In this document: positions 3,177 through 34,770 of the stretch, piece by piece | How positions within the stretch are numbered: the stretch's first letter is position 1 | Layout: each line of letters begins with the position of its first letter | Assembly: GCA_049999805.1 (NCBI GenBank) | Contig: JBNGIO010006284.1 | Span: forward strand, 1 to 42,171 | Length of the DNA: 42,171 nt | Direction of reading: 5' to 3' | Origin: Folioceros fuciformis | Lineage: Eukaryota | Made by a program: the position numbers and the translations under genes | Notes under the pieces: model-generated | The model's database searches: none | Told to the model about the DNA's origin: nothing | What the model saw: only the letters and a program-made list of their open reading frames with translations

Positions 3177-4805
3177 ATGGTTTATGCTATGATGCCAAAG
3201 ATGGGATTATGTGTTGTACTGTGTTTGACCTTATTTTGGGCTTTGTGCAATGGCATGGACACTAAAGCTGACTGGGTCTCAAGTCTTGAGATTACATCCA
3301 TTCCGGGGTTTGATGGGAAATTTCCATCCAAACATTATGGTGGCTATGTGGAGATTGATGAGAAGAATGGAAGATCTCTCTACTACTACTTTATTGAGTC
3401 TGAAGGCAATCCTCAGAACGACCCTGTTCTTTTGTGGCTCAATGGTGGACCTGGATGCTCTAGCTTTGACGGATGGATATATTCGCACGGGCCCTTCAAC
3501 TTTGTACCATCCAATCAACAGGGGGGATTGCCACAATTGACAATCAATCCAAATAGCTTATCGAAAGTAGCTAATGTGATATACTTGGATAGTCCTGCTG
3601 GGGTAGGCTTTTCATTTTCAAAATTGCAAACGGATTACAACACCAGTGACACAAAGACTGCCCAAGATACGCATGAGTTTCTCTTGAAGTGGTTCATGCT
3701 TTTTCCTCAGTTTCAAGTGTGTTTCTCTCCTTGCTTTTGTTGAGTTTGCTTTTTGTTCTTTTAGCAATGGTATAAGAAACCTAACAAGCTAACATGGTTT
3801 TCATTTGTGTGTGTGTTTTTGCAGTCCAACCCATTGTATTTGAGTGGTGAGTCTTGGGCAGGTGTATACATACCTACTTTGGCCACGCAAGTTGATTCTG
3901 GGATAAAGATAGGAGTGCAACCAATGTTAAACTTGAAAGGTTATGCTGTGGGAAATCCTTGGACGGATGATGTGATAGATACAAACTCATATTTGCCATG
4001 TCTTTATGGCATGGCTTTGGTGTCACCCCAACAGTATGAAGCAGCTCAGACATCCTGCAACAATAGCTATGTACCGCCATATACTTCACAGTGTTATGAC
4101 ACATTGGTGCAGATTGATGAAAGCACTGTAGATATCAATGAGTATAATATCCTCCAACCTTGCTTCCACGAACCGAGTGGACAGACATCTACAACCAACC
4201 TATCAAGAATTTCTGAACTTGGCCTTCGAAATAAGGTCTTGAAGACTCCTCACCGGCTACCCTTAGACCGAGTAAGATCTCTGGGATTGGAGGACTTTCG
4301 TACTGTACATAAGTCACTTAGGGGTTCTATTAACGCTGAGCAGAGTCATCGTGTGATGGTCCCATGTTTTGATGATAGTCTTGCAACAAATTGGTTGAAC
4401 CATGAGGCCGTTAGAAGCGCCATCCATGCACAACCCAGCTCTGCCGGCCAGCCATGGGTTTTATGCACAAATGTTTTAACTTACGACCATGATGCAGGAA
4501 GTATGATACCCTTGCATGAAGAGTTGACCAAAAACTTGGGTTACAGGGCTTTACTATTTAGTGGTGACCATGATTGTAATGTGCCTTACATAGGTACAAG
4601 ACAATGGACAGAAGGATTGAAATATAGCACTGTCAAGGCTTGGCGCCCATGGTATACCCAACAACAAGTGGCTGGGTTTGTGGTGGCATATGATCATGAT
4701 CTATCTTTTGCGACAGTTAAAGGTGCTGGACATAGAGTAGCACAATGGAAACCTGCAGAGTTCTTGGCCATGATTCAAGGCTGGTTGCAAACAAAGGAGC
4801 TCTGA
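3177..4805 (+). CDS. Serine carboxypeptidase-like protein (peptidase S10, SCPL20/21-like); exons about 3177-3716 and 3825-4805
   Basis: Signal-peptide-like N-terminus; LYYYFIESEGNPQNDPVLLWLNGGPGCSS; YLDSPAGVGFS; GESWAG (catalytic Ser); SGDHD (Asp); ATVKGAGH (His). GT..AG intron at 3717-3824. The start could also be the ATG at 3189, 3192 or 3201. Confidence 0.93.
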
Positions 4806-5019
4806 ATGTAGAATGTTGGGATGGAGTTTTTGTCATATTAGCTTCTACTACTAAGCATAGTTGATCTAAGTAGAGCAGGTATCATGATATCATTTCAAAG
4901 TCGTGAGGATGTTGTTTCTGTTGTGTACTGCTCATTCTCCGGGCAGCAGGAGTCCAAGAGCTAGTCTTGAAATAAAGATTTACACGATTTGAGTTTGGCA
5001 CAAAACTAAGCATGAATTG

Positions 5020-7305
5020 TCAATGTCGATCCCCACACGAACACGACCCATCAATGAAACGGTGTACTCGGTGGATGTCTCGAACAATTATCTCTCGGTT
5101 TTCGAGCCTTGACATGACCTTGGTACCGCTGTGACAGTCATCGCACATACGAAGGTTCTTGGTCACTAGCAAAGGTGTGCCATCAGGTGTGTTGAGGAGC
5201 CCAAAGGCCAGGGCTAGTTTCTCAGCGTGGCCACATAATGCATCTTCTTTTTCACTCTCAGACATTTCCTGCAGCACCAACTCGGTATGAGGCACGTGAC
5301 CTCCGTCCTTCAGCCTCTTATTCAAGGTACTGAGCTTTGATGATATTTCTGGTCTCTCTTCCCCAACGGTGAACTCGTGGACTTTGTTATTCAGTTCGAT
5401 GCAGGCCCTGGCAGGCTTCTTCTTGGCACCTGCAGTCTTTCTCAAACTCTCTATCATGTCGACATCCCCCCACCTGCCGGCGCCTGCATAAATGTGTGCC
5501 AAAAGCACATACGCCAGAGAATATTGAGGTTGCAACTCAGTAAGGCTATCAAAACATCTCCTGCCACGATCTACGTCTCCATAGTTTTTGCATGCAGCTA
5601 GGAGTGATGTCCATCCAACAACATCACTTTGAAATGGCATAGTTCGCAGCATATGTTCTGCCTCATCGAGGTGCCCGGACCGCCCAAGAAGATCGACCAT
5701 GCAATTATAATGCTCCAGGGATGGCTTCAGGCCATGGTCCGCCATCATTTTGAAGTACTGCTTGCCTTCAGTCACCAGGCCCTCGTGACTGCACGCCACG
5801 AGGAGGCAGGCGAAAGTAGCATCATCAGGCCTGACACCATGCTGCTGCATCTCTTCGAAACATTGCAACGCCATTTGACTGTCACTGCCTTCAGCATAGG
5901 CATTCAGCAAAGCAGTCCAGGTCACTACGTCTCTGGTAGGCAATCTGTCGAAGACCCTGCGAGCGTCGTCCACGCTCGCACATTTCCCATACATGTCCAC
6001 TAGACAGTTGCCGACAACAACATCAGCTTCCAATCCCCGTTGCTGGATCTGTGCATGGAGCTGCTTTCCCTGATTCAGAGCTCCAACGGTTCCGCATGCT
6101 TGCAGGAGGGCCACGAATGTAACCTGATTTGCAGGAGTGATGCCCTCTCGCTGCATATCAGCAAAAAGAGAAAGGGCCTCTACGCCGAGCTCGTTTTGCG
6201 CATATCCTGAAATCATGGCAGTCCATGTCACCACATCTCTGCACGGCAATGTGTCAAAAACCCTGCGTGCATCCTCCAAGCTCCCACACTTTGCATACAT
6301 GTCCACCAGGCAGTTCCCCACGAACATATCAGGCTCCACTGCACTCGTCAAAATATCCCTATGCACCTCCGCGCCAGCAGCCAAATCTGCTGCAGCGGCA
6401 CACGCCTTTAGGACAGCCACGAACACATAATTGTCTGGCTCCGCAGCAGACTCACGCATCTGCCGATACAGCTTGACCGCCTCCGACGCTTGTCCGTGCT
6501 CAGCATGAGCCTTGATTATGGAAGCCCACATAAAGGTGTTGGGACAAGCCACCTTGCTGAACACCTCCTTCGCTTCAGCCAGCTTCCCATGGGCAGCATA
6601 CATACAAATAAAGTGATTACCTAGAAACGAGTCTGACCCATGCCCACCTCTCAAACTGAGAGCATGAACTCGCCTGCCAAGCACCAGATCCCTCTGAGCA
6701 ATGCACTTCTTAAGCACACGGTAGAAGAGGGAGACCTCCACAGCCCGACCTTCGTGCACAAGAAGGTCCAAAGCATCCACAGCACCTCCAAGATTCCCCT
6801 CCTCAAACAACTTATCCCATTTCTCAACCCCAAAGCTCTCTCGATACATGCCAGTGTCACTACCCGAAGTTGTTGTAGTCCCTTCAGACGCATCCGCTGC
6901 TCGGGTGGACTCCAAGCCTGCTTGAGAGTCCCACAGAGCAAGCTTGGAGTCCACCCAAGCAGGCTTGTTTCTGTTGTCCATGTACAGGGCTTCCTTGGAC
7001 CTTTTGTGCCTGAAATCAGGATGACGGGGGCTCCTCTTCTCGTGCCGGTTGTCCCACCACTGCGTGGGGTCTAAGAAAAAGTCTTGCCACAGCACTTCCT
7101 GTCTATCTTTGTGAGTAATTCTTTCGCCCGTGGAGCTCCCTCCAACCCGCAAATCAAACCCGACATTTCCCGGCAAGGGTGGACTGGACACAGGACAGCG
7201 GATGCAACCAAACGAGGAATTTGATAACCATCCATCGAGGCGTGCCTGCTGAATCCTGCTGTTCACCAAGTCGGGAACCAAAAAAATTGAGCTGGCACAC
7301 ATCAT
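5020..7305 (-). CDS. PLS-class PPR protein with E1/E2 and a DYW:KP (DRH-type) deaminase domain, plus an N-terminal OSB-like PDF motif; candidate organellar RNA-editing factor
   Basis: Intronless ORF, first ATG at 7305. About 11 P/L/S repeats, then E1/E2, KKPARACIE, HAEKLA, CDDCH, ending CSCGDRH. N-terminal WQDFFLDPTQWWDNR..PDFRHK..EAL..PAWV motif. Confidence 0.95.
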   Translation of the reverse strand: MMCASSIFLVPDLVNSRIQQARLDGWLSNSSFGCIRCPVSSPPLPGNVGFDLRVGGSSTGERITHKDRQEVLWQDFFLDPTQWWDNRHEKRSPRHPDFRHKRSKEALYMDNRNKPAWVDSKLALWDSQAGLESTRAADASEGTTTTSGSDTGMYRESFGVEKWDKLFEEGNLGGAVDALDLLVHEGRAVEVSLFYRVLKKCIAQRDLVLGRRVHALSLRGGHGSDSFLGNHFICMYAAHGKLAEAKEVFSKVACPNTFMWASIIKAHAEHGQASEAVKLYRQMRESAAEPDNYVFVAVLKACAAAADLAAGAEVHRDILTSAVEPDMFVGNCLVDMYAKCGSLEDARRVFDTLPCRDVVTWTAMISGYAQNELGVEALSLFADMQREGITPANQVTFVALLQACGTVGALNQGKQLHAQIQQRGLEADVVVGNCLVDMYGKCASVDDARRVFDRLPTRDVVTWTALLNAYAEGSDSQMALQCFEEMQQHGVRPDDATFACLLVACSHEGLVTEGKQYFKMMADHGLKPSLEHYNCMVDLLGRSGHLDEAEHMLRTMPFQSDVVGWTSLLAACKNYGDVDRGRRCFDSLTELQPQYSLAYVLLAHIYAGAGRWGDVDMIESLRKTAGAKKKPARACIELNNKVHEFTVGEERPEISSKLSTLNKRLKDGGHVPHTELVLQEMSESEKEDALCGHAEKLALAFGLLNTPDGTPLLVTKNLRMCDDCHSGTKVMSRLENREIIVRDIHRVHRFIDGSCSCGDRH

Positions 7306-7558
7306 TCCAGCAGCTTCAACGCACAAACAACATCAGGTCCTCCAAACTGCACCAGCAGCTCGCGGTACCCGTGGTTCGCGGGGCAAATCGTTCAACAGAT
7401 CGATCTCCAACGTACATTTCGCTACTACCCCGACAAAAACGAAACCGTGGCTCGGATTCCAAACTCCTGATCGTAGCAAGATTCCTTGAGGACGACGTAC
7501 ACATCTGTGTCCCTTCCGCAAGTCATGTATTGGCGATGGCGAAGCTACGTGTTCCAGG

Positions 7559-7567
7559 AAACCCTAA
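7559..7567. promoter_or_regulatory. Telo-box (AAACCCTAA) upstream of the PPR gene
   Basis: Exact aaaccctaa about 250 bp upstream of the PPR ATG; telo-boxes are known plant promoter elements. Confidence 0.3.
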
Positions 7568-8565
7568 CTTGGGAGAGGAGACGCCATAGTAGCTTCGCAC
7601 CTGTGTTCAGCAGAATTCAGTTCAGGGAGAGCATGGCTGAAGGAGCCTCTCCTAGGCCCAGTCCTACCTAGGGAGAACGGAACGTAGCGTGGCTGAAAGA
7701 CCAGCCATGAGTGTGGAGGAAAGGATGCAGCTGCGAGCAGTGAAGGACGACAATTTGAGATGCACACTAAGAAGGCCATATCCATGTTCCCCCAAGTCTT
7801 GTATCTTGCTCTCGATTAACAGGTCTGTGTCCTTTGGTGTCAGTCATGAAATCTCCCTTGGCCTCTGGACAATATCTGACGATGCTGCTAAAATACTGAA
7901 GAGCTTCGACAATCAACCGTCAGTCAAATATGTAGTGTAGTAAGACCTTCGTGTGGATAGTTGAGCTTAGCTTACGCGACATCCAGAGAACGAGGCCGAT
8001 TGCCAGGACCGGAGAGGATATCGACGAAGGGGGACAACATTCTTCTGATGCATTTTTCTTGTCCTCAACTCAGTCTGGCTCAGAGGCCACCGTGCCACGT
8101 ATGCACGAGCTTTGCTTGAACCCTGTCACGTTCAATGTACTCCAACCCCTAACCCGATGTGGCACGGTGGGCACCCTAAACCCTTAATAGGTGACAACAC
8201 GCACTCATCCTAAGCAGCTGGTCGGGTATGTGGTCTCCTCAACTCCTCCCAAGGGGCAACAAGGAAAGACAGCAAGAGGTCATAGTCATAGCCTTCCAGC
8301 ACACTGAAATTTGAGTGAAATGTTCAAGGCTGCTACTAGTGCGATCATCTTTCCTGTGCATCTGGAAACCCAAAGAAGTAGCTGAGGGGCTCCATTCCTG
8401 TGCAAACCTCCAAGTAGCCTTAGGCACTATTGCAAGGAGTTCCACAAAATTGTCTAACATTATGGTACATGTAACTCACAATGAACCTCGAGCTGAAACA
8501 AAATAGGCAGATGCTGCAGAATGGAACTGATAGGACCCCTCCATCCTTCCCCCGTTCGATCTAAT

Positions 8566-19645: not shown

Positions 19646-22600
19646 ATGACGACGAGCTTCATTCATTCGACATCGCTAGCGGTAGGGGGCAGGTACTTGG
19701 TGCCCTGGACGCCCAAATTCCGTAGCCATGCACACACAGGCAAAGTGCTGTTTCTTCCCCGTCCCCTGCTCCACTTCAGGAATGCGCGCAATCGCCGTGT
19801 GATGCCGGCCTGCCCTGTTGCCAGCATCGAGCCTCTCCTGCTCTCCAATTTCGACTTGGCCACTCCCTCTCTGTATCTGCTCACGTCCCTGCTCTCCGTG
19901 GCCGTGGCCTCGGCCACCTACGGCTTGCTACAGGCCAGTCCCTCGAGGTCCGAGGCAGAAGGGGCGGGGAAGGAGGAGGAATTGGAGTCGGAGTCGGAGA
20001 AGGGCCAAGGCCGGAGCTGGGTTGTGCGATGGAGCGACGGCAAGTTCTACGACTTCGTGTACAGCCGGTGCCCAGCTGTGTCCGGGAAGCGAGTGCAGGT
20101 GGAGCAGGAGGGGCGGGAGGGGCAGGGTGTTGGGTACCGGAGAGTGTGTTTGCACGCGGGGGACGGGGGGACGGTGTCGCTGGACTGGCCAGCGCACCTG
20201 GCTTTGGAGAAGGCGGACGAGCTGGACTCCGTGTTGCTGGTGGTGGCCGGGAATGTTGAGGGCAGCGCTGAGGCCGGGGTGAGGAGCTTGGTGGACAGGG
20301 CGTTGCAGTGCGGATTCTTCCCGGCCGTGCTGAATCTCCGGGGCTGCGGAGGCTCGCCGGTCACGTCTCCAAGGCAAGCCCATTTCCGGGATGGGGACAT
20401 GGATGGATGTGGGTTTGGGCGCACGGCGCAGCACGGATTGCGGGACTGATGATCTATCTTGGGTTCTTGCTGGTTAGGCTCTTCTCAGCTGCAGACAGCG
20501 ATGACGTGCAGCTGGCTGCGGGGTTTCTGCAGCGGGCCAGGCCTGATGCCACCATTCTCGGCGTCGGGGTGGGGGTCGGCGGGAACGTGCTGGCCAGGTT
20601 TCTCGGGGAGTGTGCGGACCAGGGGTTGGTTAAGGCCGGGGTCTGTGTGGGGAACCCGTTTGAGGTTGGTGGTCAGTTGGAGAAGGAGGAGGTGGAGGAT
20701 GGGTGCTGGAAGCGGATTGTTGCGGTTCTGGAGGCGAATCAGGTGTGAGGAGAGGGTTGTTGCATTTTGTTGTTGGTTTTGTGAATTTGGGTTCAGGGGT
20801 CGGGGTCATGATGGTTTGGACGCCTGGTGTGGTGTGCAGATGCTGTTTGCAGGCACTCAGAATGGGTTCGACTTGGCTGGAGGGCTTGCAGCCACATCCA
20901 TGTGGGAATTCGATGCTGCGATATCCAGGGTCTCGCATGGGTTTGAGACTGTGGACGATTTTTATGCCTATGCCAGTAGTGGGCGGAGTATGTGGAAAGT
21001 GCGGACTCCCTTGCTGTGCATTCAGGTATGGATGTGTTGGTGCTCTGTGTTCGTGTTGAATTTGGAAGCAGGCGTGTGGAAGGGGATGGCAGTGTTTGTT
21101 GCTTCTTCGATTGAGATAGCATGTGTGCATGCAGGCAGACTATCCATCCGCTCCTTTGTTCGCTGTTCCAGGACAAGCGTTTGAGAAGAATCCCTACTTG
21201 AGTTTGGTGATGTCGCCGGGAAGAGGTCAAGTTAGCGACGATCTTTTGAGCTTGCAGGAGTTCGTGTTGCAGGTACGGTTGGAGGGATAGTAAGTTCAGG
21301 GGCCTCCTGGCTGCTTGTTTGTGATTGCTGATGAGGAGGCGGTGAGTGGTTGTGTGGCAGTGGCTGGCTGCAGTGGAGTTGGCTTTGTTTAAAGGACGTC
21401 ATCCCCTCGGCGATGTTGCGAACGGCGCTGTCAATGGTGTAGCTCAAGGGAGTAGGAACGAACGGCAGCTGCAAGTTGCAGCGGTACGGGAAGCTGGTGC
21501 CAATGCTCTCAGGGACTTGGGATCTCGCGAGGAACTCGGAGAACAGCCAAAACTAGCTGGAGATGCTGAGCACAGAGGAGGATGGAGCACGGTAGTGGCT
21601 GAATCTGGGGTTCAACAGATTTCTTCTTTGAGAACAGAGTCCGATGTTGATGACAAGCTAATAGACATGCCACACACGAGTTACAAAGTCCATAAATTGG
21701 GCGATGATGAAGCTCATGAAGTTGAAGGTAGTGTATATGCTCCGAGCCCTGTGGGTATTGATACATTGGCAGTCACAGCTCAGCCTGACACAGGACAGGG
21801 TCGTGCTGCTCTGATGGATGGTGGGCAAAGTGAGGCAAGAACAGTGGGAACACAAGTGGATGAAAACGCTGGTGGGGAGGGAGAGGCAGATGGTGAACGG
21901 GGTCAAGTAGAACAAGCAGCAGAGAGTATTATGAAGGTGCTGGATGTCACTATGCCAGGAACTCTATCTGAAGAGCAGAAGAAGAAGGTTTGGGTCCTTT
22001 CCTGTGGTCATGCTGCTTTACAATTTGATTCGTGATGTATGTGACAAAGGTAGGGCAGGCTCGGATCGAAGGACGGAGGTTGGAAGTGTCGTCTGACAAC
22101 GTGGGATTGTTGCACGTGCAGGTCATAGCTGCTGTGGGGAGAGGTGAAACCGTAGTGACTGCCTTGCAAGAAGCGGTTCCTGAGAATGTCAGGGAGAAAA
22201 TGTTCAATGCTGTTTCTGGAGCTGTCCAAGCTAGTGGTATCAGCTCTCAGCTGGTAGGGTTTGGGAAGAACTTTCCTCCCCCTTCTATCCCTGATGATGT
22301 GTTGAAGAGGATCAAGGAGAAGCTATCTGCTTATTCCCTGCTCCCTGGGAATTCTAGCCCAGCTCAGTCAAACAGCGCGGGTCGTTCTTCTCTACCGCAG
22401 CCGTCTGAGAGCTCTACCGATAGTCCTAGTCCAGAGGGAGGGTTAGAAAGGCGTGGAGACATTGGTGGAGGTGCGGAGGGCAACGGTGCTGGCACAGGAG
22501 ATGTACACTCTGACACAGGGAGTGAAACGAATGTGTCAGCACAACAAGGCTTGCAGATGAAGGAGAACGTTGGTCCAGGAGACAAACAGCAAGGCACCGC

Positions 22601-25600
22601 AGAAGCGAGTGATGCTCACAAGCAAGGTCGAGTGGATGACACGGGGAAAGAAACCAAAAGTGACACACATGATGAACCATTGCAGACAGATGGCCAGGCC
22701 GACGGAAGTTCACAGCAGAACAATACACCAGATTCAGACTCTGGTACGCAAGAGACCCGTCCACTAGGAACTACTCAGAGTAGTCACGGGGATGCCAGTC
22801 CTCCAGATCAAGCAGACAAACAGGACCGTAGCACTCATAGGGCAAAGGATGTTGCCAGCGATGCATCTCTGAACAAGGGCCAGGCAGATGCAGGGCTGAA
22901 TCAGGCAGGGGCTCATGATGATTCAGCAGACAACAACGGTCAGAGTGAAGACGTTCTAAAGCGGGGCAAGGTGGTCGGCTCTGATGGGGGTACTAAAGAT
23001 GCACCAGGGCAAGGGGCTACTCAAGACGCTCCCTCAGATTCCAGTGGTCAAAAGGGTGACGTTGCAGATGGATCGCGGGGGGCCACGAGCAAGTCAGGAG
23101 ATTGTCAAGCGGGGCCTACTGATCAGGATGTTGTAAAGCAGGAAAAGAAGGTTGACACTGATGGAGGATCACGTGACGTGGCAGGCCACGTCGACCAAGT
23201 GGTTGCAAATGCCAGCGAGGGAAAGACAGGAGCAACGGATGTGATAGATCCAGCAGAGCAGCCTCCAGATAGTTCACCGAGGGACGATCTGAATCAGAGT
23301 TCTGCGCCTCCTGCTGCAAAGACGTTCCAACCATCCCCAGCTCAAGTTCCTCCTGCTGTGGACTTCAACAGTGTCCTGCAAATGTTCACAGGGTTTGATG
23401 ACTCCACGCAAATGGCTGTAACAAATGTATTTGGAGTTGTTGAAAGCATGCTCGATAAACTTGAGGCAGAAGACAATGGAGACCAGAAGCAGCAACCAGA
23501 GGCGCCAGGGTCACCAAGATTAGGTGAAGGCAGACAACTGGACATTAACTCTGCAGATGAGAGCAATGTGGGGGATCAGGTCAGCACTCTCAGGCATTTC
23601 GACGCAAATGTGAAAGGTGATTTGCAGAGTAGTGATGGTAAGGATCCCTACAGCAGCACTCCACAAGCACATGAGACGGTCACAGCAGAAGGGAATGGAG
23701 CAGCTGTTTTGCTGGAGATAGGACCTGGTGAGGTGGAACAGGGACATGTGGCTGTCGCACGGGAGATTGTCATCGAGTCAGTGATGTCAGACCTGCTGAA
23801 AAGAATAGGACATGCTGGTATTGAAGCGTCTGGAGCTGACCTTCAAATAGAAGTTGGAGAAGTTGCAAGTGCTGTTGCTTCTGCCGTCCAATTAGCGGGG
23901 AGAAGTTCATCTCAGGCCGATAGTAGCCTTGTGTCTCAGATTAATGGTAGGCTGGGCACGGTACCTGGGCAGGCTGTAGTCACTGCTCTTGGCTCTGGGC
24001 TAGGCCGTACTAAATTATTAAGCAAGCTGGTCCCTGGTGGAGTTCTTGTGGAGGTAGTGTTGTCAGCATTAAGGACCCGTTTCCTTGTAGAGATTGAACA
24101 TGGACTGCAGACATCAACAGTGGGTGCTGTGGGTAGTAGTGGATCCTTGGCTCCAGAACGAGCCAGGGATATCCAAAATGTGGATGGCCATGCTACTGGA
24201 GACTTTGTGCAGAGCAGTGAATCGCATGATGGACTGGCCAACATGAAGACTAGTAGCATGGTGGGTGCCTTGGCAGCTGCTGTGGGAGCAATAGGTCAGG
24301 ATATGGGGCCTTCTCTAGATGAGTTGGCATCCTCCCCAGTAGCCGAGTCTGTTGAGGGGGAAGTGGGGAATTCGACACAGACACACAACATTGTTAGCTC
24401 AGTTGCGGAGAAGGCTTTATCTGTTGCAGCACCCGTTGTTCCCAAGACAGAGGATGGTGACGTGGATCAAGACAGGTGGGTAGTCATTTCCTCTTGTTTC
24501 TTCCACTACAAGTCTTGGTTACCTTTGGATTGCATCACCCCACTGTCACTCTCCGTTCTGTGGACAGGATAGTTGCAATGCTGGCAGACCTGGGTCAAAG
24601 AGGCGGAGTATTACGCCTTCTTGGAAAGGCTGCCCTTCTCTGGGGAGGATTGAGGGGCGCCATGAGTCTAACTGACAGAATGCTAGCATTTTTACGGATG
24701 TGGGAGCGACCTTTGCATCAGAGGTACGTGTGAACCCACAGAACTGTCTTTGTGAACATCGGTCAGTTCCCACAGGGAATTCTATTTGTGGACATCAGTT
24801 AATGCGTTTCTTTTCGTGTGTGTGCCATTGCAGGTTGGTAGGATTTTTGGGCATGGCTCTGCTTTTGTGGGCTCCGGTTCTGGTTCCACTTTTGCCGTCT
24901 CTGTTGGAGCAATGGTCGTCCCAAACTTCAGGCGGGGTTGCAAGCTTTGCCTCTGTGGTTGGTCTCTATGGGGCCATCATCATCCTTCTCACGATCTGGG
25001 GAAGGAGGATACGTGGCTATGATCAGCCACTCGCCCACTATGGATTGAGAATCACGTCACCTTCTAAGGTGTGTTGCTAATCGAGTTGCTTCATGTTTTT
25101 GAACCTGACTAGTTTCTTCACCGATTGATGTACATGCAGCAAAAGAAGATGGACTGATGGACTGAGTAGATTGGTGCTCGTATTCTTGGAACAGTTTGTT
25201 GCTGTTGCACAAGGACTTGGGCTGGGAGTGCTACTTGTCGCATCTCTCTACAGTCTTGAATCCTATCTGGGCTATGTGCAATTCTCGTGGTCAGCATTTG
25301 CAGTGACAGCACCGACCATCACAAACATTGGCCTGATCACCGCCAGCCTCCCACCAGCTTTGCTAACTTGTTGGAAACTAGTTATGCTGGTTGCACAGGC
25401 AGTTGGTGTGGGATGTGCTATAGCTCTTGTGGAGGAGCTGCTTTTCCGTGGATGGCTGCAAGAAGAGATTGCGGTGGATCTTGGGTACATCAATGCAGTG
25501 CTTCTCTGTGCGGCAGCCTTTGCTGTTGTTCACTGGTATGTCATGATACGGAGCTCCCCTAGTGACATTCTGCGACCTTTTGACCTGTTAGCCTGATTCT

Positions 25601-30480: not shown

Positions 30481-31533
30481 ATGGAGTTCTGGCCGGAGTT
30501 CCTCGCGGGCTCCTGGGGGAAGGAGTTCCTGGCGGGAGCGCTCGGGGGGATGGCGGGAGTGGTGGCTGGCCATCCTCTGGATACTGTCAGAATTCGGTTG
30601 CAGCAGCCCCGCTCCTTGGCTTCCACTGAGCCTGTCTCGGCCTTTGCAATGATGCGCAAGATTGCGTCGTCGGAAGGCCCCCTGGCTCTCTTCAAAGGCA
30701 TGGGGCCACCGCTGGCTACTGTCGCCTTCCAGGTATTGTTTGCCGTCCTCATTTTCGTTTGTCTTCATGGAAGTCTTTCGTTTCTTCACGACTTGCTTCG
30801 TGGATTGCTGCAGAACGCTGTGGCCTTCCAAACCTACGCTCTTCTGAAACGAGCTTTGTCGGAACCCGGCTCCGACGATCCCCTCCCGTATTCCAAGATT
30901 GCCTTGGCCGGGTCATGTGCAGGCACAATTCAGACGCTCATCCTCACTCCCGTCGACCTCATCAAGATCCGACTGCAGCTAGAGACGGCCAGATTGGCAG
31001 GAACTCGGCCTTCCCTGGCCACATTCAGGCAACGGGAGATAGGACCCCGCAGTCTCGCTAGCAAGATTGTCAAAGCTGAAGGTGTACGAGGCTTGTACCG
31101 AGGCCTCACCATCACGGCTCTGCGAGACGCCCCTAGCCATGCTGTCTACTTCGTCACCTACGAGTACGTGAGAGAGCAGCTTTCTCCGGGTTGCCGGAAG
31201 AACGGGCAGGAGAGCGTCATGACCATGCTCACCGCAGGTGGCCTCGCCGGAGTGGTGAGTTGGGTGTGTTGTTACCCTCTGGATGTCGTCAAGTCCAGGC
31301 TCCAGGCCCAGTCCCCGACCAAGCCAAGATATGCCGGTATCACTGACTGCATGAGGAAGAGTATACGGGAGGAAGGATACTCCGTCCTGTTTCGAGGCTT
31401 GGGAGCTGCTGTGGCGCGTGCTTACATCGTGAATGGTGCCATCTTCTCTGCCTATGAGCTCGCCTTGCGATTGCTGTCTGCTCCTCCTCAGACCACGAAC
31501 TCGACTGGCCCTCAGCAAGCCCTCCAAGACTGA
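30481..31533 (+). CDS. BAC2: Mitochondrial basic amino acid (arginine/ornithine) carrier, BAC2-like; intron 30733-30813
   Basis: MEFWPEFLAGSWGKEFLAG N-terminus typical of BAC2. Three carrier signatures: PLDTVRIR, PVDLIKIR, PLDVVKSR; also LRDAPSHAVYF. GT..AG 81-bp intron between AFQ and NAVAFQ. Confidence 0.92.
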   Translation: MEFWPEFLAGSWGKEFLAGALGGMAGVVAGHPLDTVRIRLQQPRSLASTEPVSAFAMMRKIASSEGPLALFKGMGPPLATVAFQVLFAVLIFVCLHGSLSFLHDLLRGLLQNAVAFQTYALLKRALSEPGSDDPLPYSKIALAGSCAGTIQTLILTPVDLIKIRLQLETARLAGTRPSLATFRQREIGPRSLASKIVKAEGVRGLYRGLTITALRDAPSHAVYFVTYEYVREQLSPGCRKNGQESVMTMLTAGGLAGVVSWVCCYPLDVVKSRLQAQSPTKPRYAGITDCMRKSIREEGYSVLFRGLGAAVARAYIVNGAIFSAYELALRLLSAPPQTTNSTGPQQALQD

Positions 31534-32156: not shown

Positions 32157-33116
32157 ATGATTCTGCTGCAAGGGCCGTCGCGAGCGCTGCAGCATACTCT
32201 TCACGCTCGACTGCGCTCTCTGGACCGGGGAGTGGAGATCGACTATCATCTGGTGGAGTTCGATGACGTGCGGTACCACATCTACGCCACAGCCAAGGAG
32301 CCGCATCACCTCTTCTTGTCCATCTCCATTCCTCCGCCTCCGCCGGAGACGGTCTTTTCCGGCGGCCTGCCCTTCGGTGCGACGGAAGCTGTGAGAGGAG
32401 CTTATGGCGGTGCGGTGCAGGTTATGGAAACTACGGAGCCCGGGTTTCATCTCACCTTGAGGCTGGATCTCACCCGACTTCCTGCTGACGAGGGAGAGCG
32501 CATAAATCTGGTGACGAGGCTGGCGTCCCTGCGGTCTGTGGTGCTAGGAGCTCCGCTGCGCAAGATCTTGAAGCATCTGGCGGCGAAGCAGGTGGATCCG
32601 GATGCCGACTCGCTCACCTCACTGGTGCACAGGCCGAAGGAGTCTTATTTTGTGATCCCCCAGCCGGAGAAGGTGATTGTGGTTTTCCCGATGCGCTTCA
32701 AGGATGGGAACGATGTCATTCTGGCAACGTCCTTCTTGCAGGAGTTCATGGAGGCGAGACGCACCGCAGGTCTCAACACAGCGCCCCTTTGCAAGTGGTC
32801 TCCTACTCCTCCCCTTGAACTCAAAGGTGCACCTCCTCAAGCCCTGGATGCCAATTCCGGATTCATGTCCTTCGTCATTTTCCCTCGTCATGTGGAGGGG
32901 CCCGACAGCCTTGACAGAGTAGTGTGGAGCCTCTCAACCTTCCATTCTTACGTCGGCTATCATATCAAGTGCTCCAAGGCCTTCATGCACACCAGAATGA
33001 GGAGGAGAGTGGACATTCTGATTCAGGCCTTTAACAGAGCCAAGCCAGAGGTGGATCCCACCACAGTGAAAGAGCGGAAAACAGCACAGGGGAGATCTTT
33101 CAAGCGGTCTGTGTAA
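32157..33116 (+). CDS. ARPC2: Actin-related protein 2/3 complex subunit 2 (p34-Arc), intronless
   Basis: MILLQ..SR, VEFDDVRYHI, VHRPKESYF, VVFPMRFKD..D..LATSFLQEFMEARRTAGLNTAP, FVIFPRHVEG, YHIKCSKAFMHTRMRRRV; single open ORF of 319 aa. Confidence 0.95.
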   Translation: MILLQGPSRALQHTLHARLRSLDRGVEIDYHLVEFDDVRYHIYATAKEPHHLFLSISIPPPPPETVFSGGLPFGATEAVRGAYGGAVQVMETTEPGFHLTLRLDLTRLPADEGERINLVTRLASLRSVVLGAPLRKILKHLAAKQVDPDADSLTSLVHRPKESYFVIPQPEKVIVVFPMRFKDGNDVILATSFLQEFMEARRTAGLNTAPLCKWSPTPPLELKGAPPQALDANSGFMSFVIFPRHVEGPDSLDRVVWSLSTFHSYVGYHIKCSKAFMHTRMRRRVDILIQAFNRAKPEVDPTTVKERKTAQGRSFKRSV

Positions 33117-33639: not shown

Positions 33640-34770
33640 GAACACGAGGGAAGCTGCAGTCTCAGAGATGGAAGAGCTGAGCAGGTGCTTCTAGGATGAG
33701 AAGCTGTTAGGCGCTGTGGAAGCATTGCAGGCCCTCGTGGCGCCAGGGACTGAGCTCCTGCCTCTGTCTGCTTCCTCGGGCTGAGGAGGTGTATGCAGGA
33801 CAGGATTTTGGGTCTTGGCAGGGCCCTTGCTGAGGACGGGAAGGTGACCATAGAAGGTGGTGATTCTATGGTCATATTTGGTGGACATGTAGGGGAAGTA
33901 TGGCTGTTCGGAAGATGCCTGCAAGAATGGTGGTGACTTGGACATTCACGACCCCAGGGTATTCTCGGCTGAGAGCCGGACATGGATGAAGCCCTTGTAT
34001 TGTATTCTTTATGCAAAAGTAGGCTGTGAGCACAGCTGTTAGTGTTACCTTTGTGTGCCTTGTGCAAGCGTGTGCTGCTGCTGTTGGTGCTTCCAGCTTA
34101 CATAGACGGGAAAAATCTTGCAAACTGACGTGGTGGTTGGCAATTGTCTGTTGGACATGTATGTCAAGTGCGGGCATCTGGAAAATGCACGCAGAGTTGT
34201 TGAGGGGATGCCCTAGCAGAATGTGGTGCCATGGTCTGCCGTCCTTGCAGGATATGCCCAGAGGTGATGGTGAAGTAGCCCTGGATGTTTATGCAGCTGG
34301 AAGCACGTGACTCCTGCCATGGATGCACTTCATCAGGGAACGCAGCATAGTACGCTCAACTGTGCAAAGAGCTGCTGTTCATGCACTTCCTTGTCCTCTG
34401 CAGCCCTGCTGGCTTCCTGAGTCGAAACACTGTCACACTACGTCTTATTGTGTGCCGCGTTATGCAAAAGACACATGCATGCATATGATTACGTCCGTAG
34501 GTCCGAGTTATTCAAGATGGAGGGTGTGCGTGTGAACTGTGTTAAGTCTTATCTCAATGAAAGGACTGGACGTGGTGTCCTCACGTCTAATAGCGAAGCA
34601 GCCTCCTATATCGTGAAGGGCGGGCTACTGAGCTGAGAGAAGCCTGAACACCACGTCGAGTCCATGATACGAGAGTCGGTTATTGTGTTGTGTGCGTTGA
34701 CGTTGGACGTACTGGTGTCTACTGTGTGTAATCAGGCGTCACATTGCTCTGGCCAGGAAAAGGGGAACAA
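33640..34770 (+). pseudogene. Degenerate PLS-PPR pseudogene
   Basis: Fragments with frameshifts and stops: VTFVCLVQACAAAVG, LQTDVVVGNCLLDMYVKCGHLENARRV, MP*QNVVPWSAVLAGYAQ, GDGEVALDVY. Boundaries approximate. Confidence 0.8.

Follow-up and report, generated by a model that had tools for sequence, protein, structure and literature searches.

A window of 42,171 nucleotides from the hornwort Folioceros fuciformis (assembly GCA_049999805.1, contig JBNGIO010006284.1, positions 1 to 42,171; "the window" below always denotes this whole stretch) encodes on its minus strand a 761-residue protein, P0001, in which a PDF motif of the kind known from the plant OSB proteins is fused to the N-terminal side of a pentatricopeptide repeat (PPR) array that ends in E motifs and a DYW deaminase domain. 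We consider it close to certain that the module has been correctly identified and that the fusion is genuine. Furthermore, comparison with sequences from other plants indicates that the P0001 gene is a member of a recurrent family of PDF-PPR fusions, with representatives in a hornwort, ferns, a lycophyte and Sphagnum; it is this family-level recurrence that is new here, the identity of the module itself being solid. The coordinates of all features are collected in Table 1.

The identity of the motif was established with a 76-residue piece of P0001 (residues 60-135) as the query. A phmmer search of 1.84 billion representative proteins with this piece returned 687 matches at E<=1e-3, of which 207 were recovered at E<=1e-10 and 18 at E<=1e-30, and many of these proteins display 2-13 matched stretches; the motif is therefore a repeat in many of them. 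The characterization of the matches, here and below, covers the best 150 of the 687. Among these the Pfam SSB model is found at E<=1e-3 in 48 (2 of 10, 22 of 71 and 24 of 69 by batch, with the two in the ten-protein batch falling below the curated Pfam cutoff), and jackhmmer searches seeded with residues 1-220 of P0007, a protein of Amborella trichopoda named by NCBI as "protein OSB3, chloroplastic/mitochondrial", recovered an OB domain in 79. When the 76-residue piece was compared with P0007 by BLASTP, it produced four high-scoring segment pairs on four repeats, the best of these with 57% identity over 51 residues (E 1e-17).

A hidden Markov model (HMM) of OSB instances only, with 201 aligned instances from the 79 OB-bearing proteins including its seed, a repeat of Amborella OSB3, matches residues 72-123 of P0001 with 69.4 bits (E 8.6e-24), a score to be read with the caveat that the window motif had served as the query by which the 79 proteins were found, so that they are not an independent sample of OSB proteins. 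On the same model 200 OSB instances score from 14.1 to 92.4 bits (median 77.65), and the window motif thus lies inside their range; in the controls one of 902 six-frame segments of the window matched the model, and the best of 2000 shuffles of the 76-residue piece reached 8.8 bits. The core consensus of the matches, W..F..P..WWDNR..K..P..PDFKHK...EALW....P.WV, is reproduced by residues 72-123, in which the invariant W, W, D, R, K, P, F and W are all retained. A preliminary description of this stretch, made from the sequence without database searches, had placed an OSB-type PDF motif at 6935-7105 and quoted a peptide that corresponds to residues 72-122. The HMM match (6937-7092) sits within that interval, and the phmmer, BLASTP and profile results together bear out true homology between the segment and the OSB PDF motif; the consensus given in the description also agrees with that of the matches, the window departing from it at one position, where Y stands in place of W after EAL. 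Within the window tBLASTn detected no second copy of the motif. Pfam assigned no family to the 76-residue piece, and the motif gave no usable match in the ESM Atlas and 0 matches at E<=10 in a sequence search of the PDB. A word-indexed protein search with the motif and with region 55-200 of P0001 likewise gave no matches, which we read as a sensitivity limit of the index because phmmer gave 687.

P0001 is encoded by a single uninterrupted, intronless open reading frame (ORF), with an in-frame TGA 30 nucleotides upstream of its first ATG, and this frame is unbroken from the PDF motif through the parts that Pfam recognizes as PPR, E and DYW. We examined it against contigs from four public runs, namely X1, which is RNA-like, X2, a DNA run from the same organism, and X4 and X10, from two other organisms. 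As the RNA label of the X1 record is a guess, we took X1 to be RNA on the basis of a spliced contig of the neighbouring gene: this contig joins across the introns of that gene (at 8697/8782, 8939/9031 and 9343/9431), whereas X2 reads straight through. The same introns are joints in the X4 and X10 contigs and are absent as joints in X2, and two of the joints, listed with CT..AC ends, correspond to GT..AG on the minus strand. From 4796 to 7901 the X1 contigs show neither a mismatch to the window nor a splice; X1 ends where X2 continues, and the two runs agree with 0 mismatches. No single X1 contig covers the entire ORF, the unitigs breaking at 6292-6298 and at 7011-7040, the second of which falls within the coding sequence of the motif. 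X4 and X10, which also hold the spliced neighbouring gene, each contribute one contig over 6291/6294-7318 that runs from the PPR array through the whole motif to just beyond the start codon, with 70-81 letters that differ from the window and gaps of 24 letters, a number divisible by three, or about 92-93% identity. In light of the unspliced X1 cover and the bridging X4 and X10 contigs, the mature transcript includes the motif, which has also been conserved in related species; the intronless fusion of the preliminary description is thereby upheld. As the rest of the window contains ordinary eukaryotic nuclear genes, the P0001 gene is a nuclear gene of the plant.

Two further observations concern the transcript and its assembly. 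One X1 contig continues unspliced for about 600 nucleotides upstream of the P0001 start codon (7306-7901, minus strand), and part of this stretch (7521-7695) also aligns in an X4 contig from another organism; it represents either an unusually long leader or an overlapping transcript. In addition, the unitigs of both the RNA-like and the DNA run break at the same 30-nucleotide overlap (7011-7040, around the HEKRSPRHPD codons), a weak hint that another locus of the same genome, perhaps one of PDF-bearing paralogues, may share this stretch.

Beyond the motif, Pfam detects the repeat models PPR_2 (6.4e-54) and PPR (2.4e-48) in P0001. An AlphaFold2 model of the 76-residue piece, made with 44 homologues, has a predicted local distance difference test score (pLDDT) of 89.1 and a predicted template modelling score of 0.74, and comprises a helix (6-19 in the numbering of the piece), short strands and a second helix (58-75). 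In the model of the whole protein (20 sequences, mean pLDDT 76.8) the motif, with pLDDT values of about 73-92, stands between residues 1-62 and 133-156, both below 50. The 14 helical hairpins over residues 160-624 (12 PPR, E1 and E2) are modelled with confidence, and the DYW part, which only two of the aligned sequences include, is modelled poorly for that reason. Based on these models, we propose that the PDF module folds by itself, as some 60 residues in the order helix, small beta unit and helix between two disordered segments, and that the chain is likely to begin with a presequence-like tail, continue through a folded PDF bead and a flexible linker, and end in the PPR-E-DYW body. The presequence-like N-terminus is a putative organelle-targeting signal. 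Both Pfam and the structural models thus agree with the placement first described: the motif follows a presequence-like N-terminus, here predicted to be disordered, and precedes the PPR array of a protein of the PLS-E-DYW class.

Alignment of the deaminase domain with that of a Sphagnum DYW:PG protein (P0104) shows that P0001 has KPA for PG, HAE for HSE, CDDCH for CGDCH and DRH for DYW, and that both zinc-binding signatures, HxE (as HAE) and CxxCH (as CDDCH), are present. The KP criterion is worded as "KPAxA". The PG/KP box, the HSE/HAE region and the C-terminal tripeptide are the regions that differ between the DYW:PG and DYW:KP types, and DRH marks one of two hornwort KP subgroups (PMC9478123). 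On these sequence features, P0001 is a PLS-class PPR-E-DYW editing factor of the DYW:KP/DRH kind. The DYW:KP proteins are candidate U-to-C editing factors (PMC9478123, PMC11845758, PMC11332814), and in Escherichia coli three of seven designer proteins, two GRP-based and one with the fern-type KP6 domain, displayed U-to-C editing (PMC9478123). The initial label of a "U-to-C-type" enzyme accordingly holds as regards the KP/DRH features, and less so as regards activity, since the available portion of the same paper does not include a DRH-based designer among those reported as U-to-C active (PMC9478123); such activity is plausible for the DRH subgroup.

[quoted passage not shown] Pfam detects PPR repeats in 14 of the best 150 motif matches (6 of 10, 0 of 71 and 8 of 69 by batch), and 12 align by BLASTP (E<=1e-5) to the PPR-E-DYW part of P0001; in these 12 every one of the 17 PDF instances, at one to three copies per protein, is N-terminal of the array. 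PDF-PPR proteins come from Diphasiastrum complanatum (P0085, P0108, P0116, P0131), Sphagnum compactum (P0104), Pteridium aquilinum (P0064, P0140), Adiantum capillus-veneris (P0024) and Logan records (P0003, P0081, P0073, P0147), so that the same architecture is present in independent genome annotations and one transcriptome of other plants. Several short matches resemble N-terminal fragments of PDF-PPR genes, namely P0130 from S. troendelagicum, P0151 from S. jensenii, P0086 from a cluster including S. jensenii, and P0115, P0145 and P0079 from JGI/IMG; the source name "pentatricopeptide repeat protein" is attached to P0079 and to three cluster members of P0115. None of the PPR-linked matches that bear an organism name derives from a seed plant, which, being a statement on the best 150 of 687, does not by itself show absence.

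The junction between motif and array is of two types. In the first, seen in the window protein, P0081, P0003, P0064, P0073, P0108, P0116 and P0131, the motif or motifs are followed by a variable linker of 20-60 residues and a first hairpin of the "LC.EG.L..A" kind. In the second (P0104, P0147, P0085, P0130, P0115, P0151, P0145, P0086 and P0079) the motif abuts a P-type motif via a conserved "PGT.Q...F.WN..L.RYVK.G". When 20 PPR-linked sequences were aligned, all 11 invariant columns fell in the PDF motif. A FastTree phylogeny of 359 of 399 motif instances over 52 columns, from which 40 low-scoring or partial instances had been dropped, placed the window motif in a clade of 12 with local support of 0.81, 9 of the 12 being PPR-linked; in view of the 52-column alignment and the low supports (at most about 0.87), the tree cannot choose between a single origin and several. 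The preliminary description had associated the motif with U-to-C enzymes and with short PPR arrays, and neither association extends to the family: P0104 is a complete PDF, short PPR, E and DYW protein with the canonical PG box, HSE and DYW, which shows the fusion to extend beyond the KP type, just as the length of the Diphasiastrum members (1100-1280 residues) shows it to extend beyond short arrays. The Diphasiastrum isoforms that were inspected all end within the E motif.

The motif also occurs in other contexts. Certain proteins are made largely of tandem PDF motifs, with 9-13 phmmer stretches (P0004, P0005, P0011, P0014, P0002); the last of these, a 1160-residue protein of Kingdonia uniflora, has 13 copies and an SSB match that is sub-threshold only. 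Neither an OB nor a PPR domain is found in 59 of the best 150 matches, many of which are short fragments. P0047 of Coptis chinensis (1526 residues) combines a kinesin motor model with three N-terminal PDF stretches, and could represent either a genuine fusion or gene models that were merged.

Among known systems, the OSB proteins (OSB1-4 of Arabidopsis), which bind single-stranded DNA in organelles and serve in the maintenance of organelle genomes, are like P0001 in their PDF motif of about 50 residues, as reflected in the identity to the Amborella OSB3 repeats noted above, and the one to three copies in the PPR fusions are a further likeness. They differ in having a central OB-fold or SSB-like domain and a C-terminal PDF, whereas P0001 is without an SSB match in Pfam, carries the motif N-terminally and has an RNA-editing PPR-DYW array as the partner domain instead. 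The OB set of 79 proteins and the PPR set of 12 do not overlap. On account of the missing OB fold, the N-terminal motif and the PPR-DYW partner, P0001 is not a member of the OSB family. Some PPR-SMR proteins are found in nucleoid or plastid transcriptionally active chromosome (pTAC) fractions. The PPR-SMR proteins likewise combine a PPR array with a domain from the world of DNA metabolism, but in them the SMR domain is C-terminal, sits on P-class PPRs without a deaminase and has no sequence relation to PDF (PMC3858433). With the hornwort DYW:KP proteins of the DRH subgroup P0001 shares the PLS array, E1/E2, KPA, HAE and the terminal DRH, and its N-terminal PDF lies outside the architecture described for them in the available portion of PMC9478123. 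ORRM1 (MORF plus RRM) and the RRM-PPR and OZ-PPR fusions (PMC13386178) follow the same logic, in that the editing machinery has been joined by a helper domain or one that binds nucleic acids generically; these employ RRM, MORF or RanBP2 zinc finger domains and are found in angiosperms, whereas P0001 employs PDF and the PDF-PPR spread seen here is among spore-bearing plants.

Whether the fusion had been noted before was left undecided in the preliminary description. The text of a 2026 kingdom-wide survey of domain fusions in editing factors contains 0 occurrences of "OSB" or "PDF" (PMC13386178), and that of a 2026 paper on OSB evolution contains 0 occurrences of "PPR" or "pentatricopeptide" (PMC13393729); the latter, in its available portion, scanned for proteins with both PDF and, apparently, OB-fold-like domains. 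We found no paper that joins PDF motifs with PPR proteins, subscription papers and supplementary tables lying outside this check, and it is likely that the fusion has not been noted before.

As to the function of the module, we lean slightly towards a role as a tether to single-stranded DNA (ssDNA) of the nucleoid, a reading by analogy with OSB proteins that we regard as possible rather than probable, because ssDNA binding is the one activity measured for the module and because the junction type of the window protein has a flexible linker. To our knowledge, high-affinity ssDNA binding is the only known activity of PDF. OSB2 is identical to PTAC9, a component of the plastid transcriptionally active chromosome. 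In a PPR tract the N-terminal motifs lie on the 5' side of the RNA, with the DYW domain acting 3' of the footprint. In AtOSB1 the PDF motif alone is sufficient for ssDNA binding (PMC6963530), the OB fold of AtOSB1 has seemingly lost this ability (PMC6963530, PMC6451138), the ssDNA is bound by the PDF domains and not by the OB fold (PMC6451138), and OSB1 and OSB2 favour ssDNA over double-stranded DNA or RNA (PMC4166229). Following import and removal of the presequence, the PDF module would stay on the mature protein and might serve, as in OSB1, as a sequence-independent anchor for single-stranded nucleic acid. The ligand that we lean to would be ssDNA in the nucleoid, either the displaced strand of transcription bubbles and R-loops or intermediates of replication and recombination. 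Anchored at the nucleoid through the flexible linker, the PPR tract could scan nascent RNA and the DYW:KP domain could edit it, and editing would thus be favoured near transcription.

Several points weigh against an ssDNA tether. Such a role is transferred to PDF-PPR proteins by analogy from the OSB literature, and the substrate of a PPR-DYW protein is RNA, so that an RNA ligand is about as plausible as ssDNA. With the type 2 junction, found in Sphagnum and in one Diphasiastrum gene, the lack of a linker would suit an extended RNA path better than a loose tether. A clade of their own (with the support given above, over 52 columns) unites the PPR-linked motifs of the window's group, whose ligand may have changed; the window motif itself has Y for the nearly invariant W after EAL. 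That the module stays on the mature protein is assumed and may not hold. Fold searches with the motif model recovered no informative relative (the best Foldseek match in the PDB has E 7, and a wide VIA search peaked at Z 4.5, with no chain reaching Z>=5); this is not evidence of a new fold. A further suggestion of the preliminary description, in which the deaminase is brought to ssDNA as its substrate, has no support, as the quoted work treats DYW domains as RNA editors.

A second possibility, which we rate only a little lower, is that the PDF module grips the single-stranded RNA substrate, with no sequence preference, just 5' of the PPR footprint, where it might add affinity or keep the RNA unfolded and so constitute a built-in counterpart of the trans helpers of seed plants. 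The N-terminal position of all 17 motifs in the 12 PPR proteins is consistent with this, as is the direct abutment of motif and first PPR motif, with a conserved junction, in nine proteins; the pairing with both KP and PG deaminases fits a general substrate-binding aid, and RRM-PPR and other helper-domain fusions are known (PMC13386178). However, the sole biochemistry quoted has OSB1 and OSB2 preferring ssDNA to RNA (PMC4166229), and the very long PPR arrays of the 1100-1280 residue members should need no extra affinity.

It is unlikely, in our estimate, that the motif is a protein-protein module that docks the editing factor on OSB oligomers, other PDF-bearing proteins or the import and assembly machinery without contacting nucleic acid. 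The literature assigns ssDNA binding to the motif itself (PMC6963530, PMC4166229, PMC6451138) and there is no known partner, even though AtOSB2 is a tetramer (PMC6963530) and conserved aromatic residues mark the motif, a small helical/beta unit. The occurrence of the motif in tandem, in as many as 13 copies, and the 59 of the best 150 matches that are without OB or PPR domains, would also suit such a role, but many of the latter are short fragments.

More improbable still is that the motif is a dispensable passenger, either cleaved with the transit peptide or decaying as a relic of OSB exon capture, as might be suggested by its closeness to the N-terminus (residues 72-123), the change of one nearly invariant W to Y and the lack of fusions among the seed-plant matches in the best 150 of 687. 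All other core residues are retained and the score is within the OSB range, four plant lineages, with 12-14 representative PPR clusters between them, have kept the module, and it holds every invariant column of the PPR-linked alignment; moreover, related organisms are about 92-93% identical there with gaps in frame, and the 62 disordered residues before the module suffice for a presequence. Finally, an artefact, be it chance likeness, mis-assembly or two genes read as one, is effectively refuted by the profile E-value of 8.6e-24 against at most 8.8 bits for shuffles, the one uninterrupted ORF, the X1-X2 agreement with 0 mismatches, the X4 and X10 contigs that each join the motif to the start of the PPR array, and the recurrence of the architecture in independent annotations and a transcriptome of other plants, notwithstanding that no X1 contig spans the whole ORF and that one break (7011-7040) lies inside the motif coding sequence.

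These results have a bearing on how editing factors are viewed. PPR-DYW proteins are usually pictured as self-contained RNA readers with a deaminase, and in plants without MORF-type helpers the question arises of how they find nascent transcripts; a PDF module that precedes the PPR tract, on its 5' side, in four spore-plant lineages provides a testable handle on the coupling of editing to the nucleoid and to transcription. On a wider and frankly speculative view, which we think unlikely, PDF-PPR proteins would be an ancient, unnamed land-plant class of editing factors that hornworts, Sphagnum, lycophytes and ferns still possess and seed plants have lost. In such proteins an OSB-derived module would couple both C-to-U and U-to-C editing to the nucleoid in a co-transcriptional manner, with seed plants later having swapped in trans helpers (MORF, ORRM, OZ). 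The PDF motif is a portable domain, not private to OSB proteins, which domain-based surveys would miss because no domain database used here models it (there is no Pfam match). It also offers a natural accessory module for the design of U-to-C and C-to-U base editors.

Table 1. Coordinates of the PDF-PPR gene, its parts and the other features of the window (PDF-PPR gene first)
Feature	Position	Strand	Basis or remark
Intronless coding sequence of P0001	5020..7305	-	includes stop codon 5020-5022; Pfam PPR, E_motif, DYW_deaminase
N-terminal 71 residues, presequence-like (S/G/R-rich), predicted disordered	7093..7305	-	AlphaFold2 pLDDT <50, residues 1-62; composition
PDF motif, residues 72-123	6937..7092	-	OSB-only HMM; BLASTP to Amborella OSB3; AlphaFold2
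WWDNR of PDF motif	7045-7059	-	
PDFRHK of PDF motif	7003-7020	-	
PAWV of PDF motif	6952-6963	-	
Linker, residues 124-159	6829..6936	-	end of second PDF helix, then low-complexity T/S/G-rich; AlphaFold2 pLDDT <50, residues 133-156
PLS-type PPR array, residues 160-561, 12 predicted helical hairpins	5623..6828	-	Pfam PPR/PPR_2/PPR_1/PPR_3; AlphaFold2 helices H160-H555, pLDDT ~90
E1/E2 motifs, residues 562-624	5434..5622	-	Pfam E_motif 575-636, 1.1e-12; two AlphaFold2 hairpins
DYW domain, KP/DRH kind, residues 625-761	5023..5433	-	Pfam DYW_deaminase 669-759, 6.3e-35
KPA box of DYW domain	5404-5424	-	
HAE(K) of DYW domain	5218-5229	-	
CDDCH of DYW domain	5131-5145	-	
Unspliced cover by three overlapping X1 contigs	4796..7901	-	4796-6298, 6292-7040, 7011-7901
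Neighbouring gene	8136-9885	-	three short introns, ~8698-8781, 8940-9030, 9344-9430
Serine carboxypeptidase S10 ORF	3924-4805	+	Pfam
DUF7750 ORF	22035-24572	+	Pfam
Mitochondrial carrier ORF	30481-31533	+	Pfam
Arp2/3 p34 ORF	32157-33116	+	Pfam
PPR-like fragment	33912-34261	+	tBLASTn with P0001, 40-56% identity, E down to 1.7e-17; no long ORF listed

The window includes 210 N. Of the features outside the PDF-PPR gene, the PPR-like fragment on the plus strand may be a PPR pseudogene fragment or an exon.

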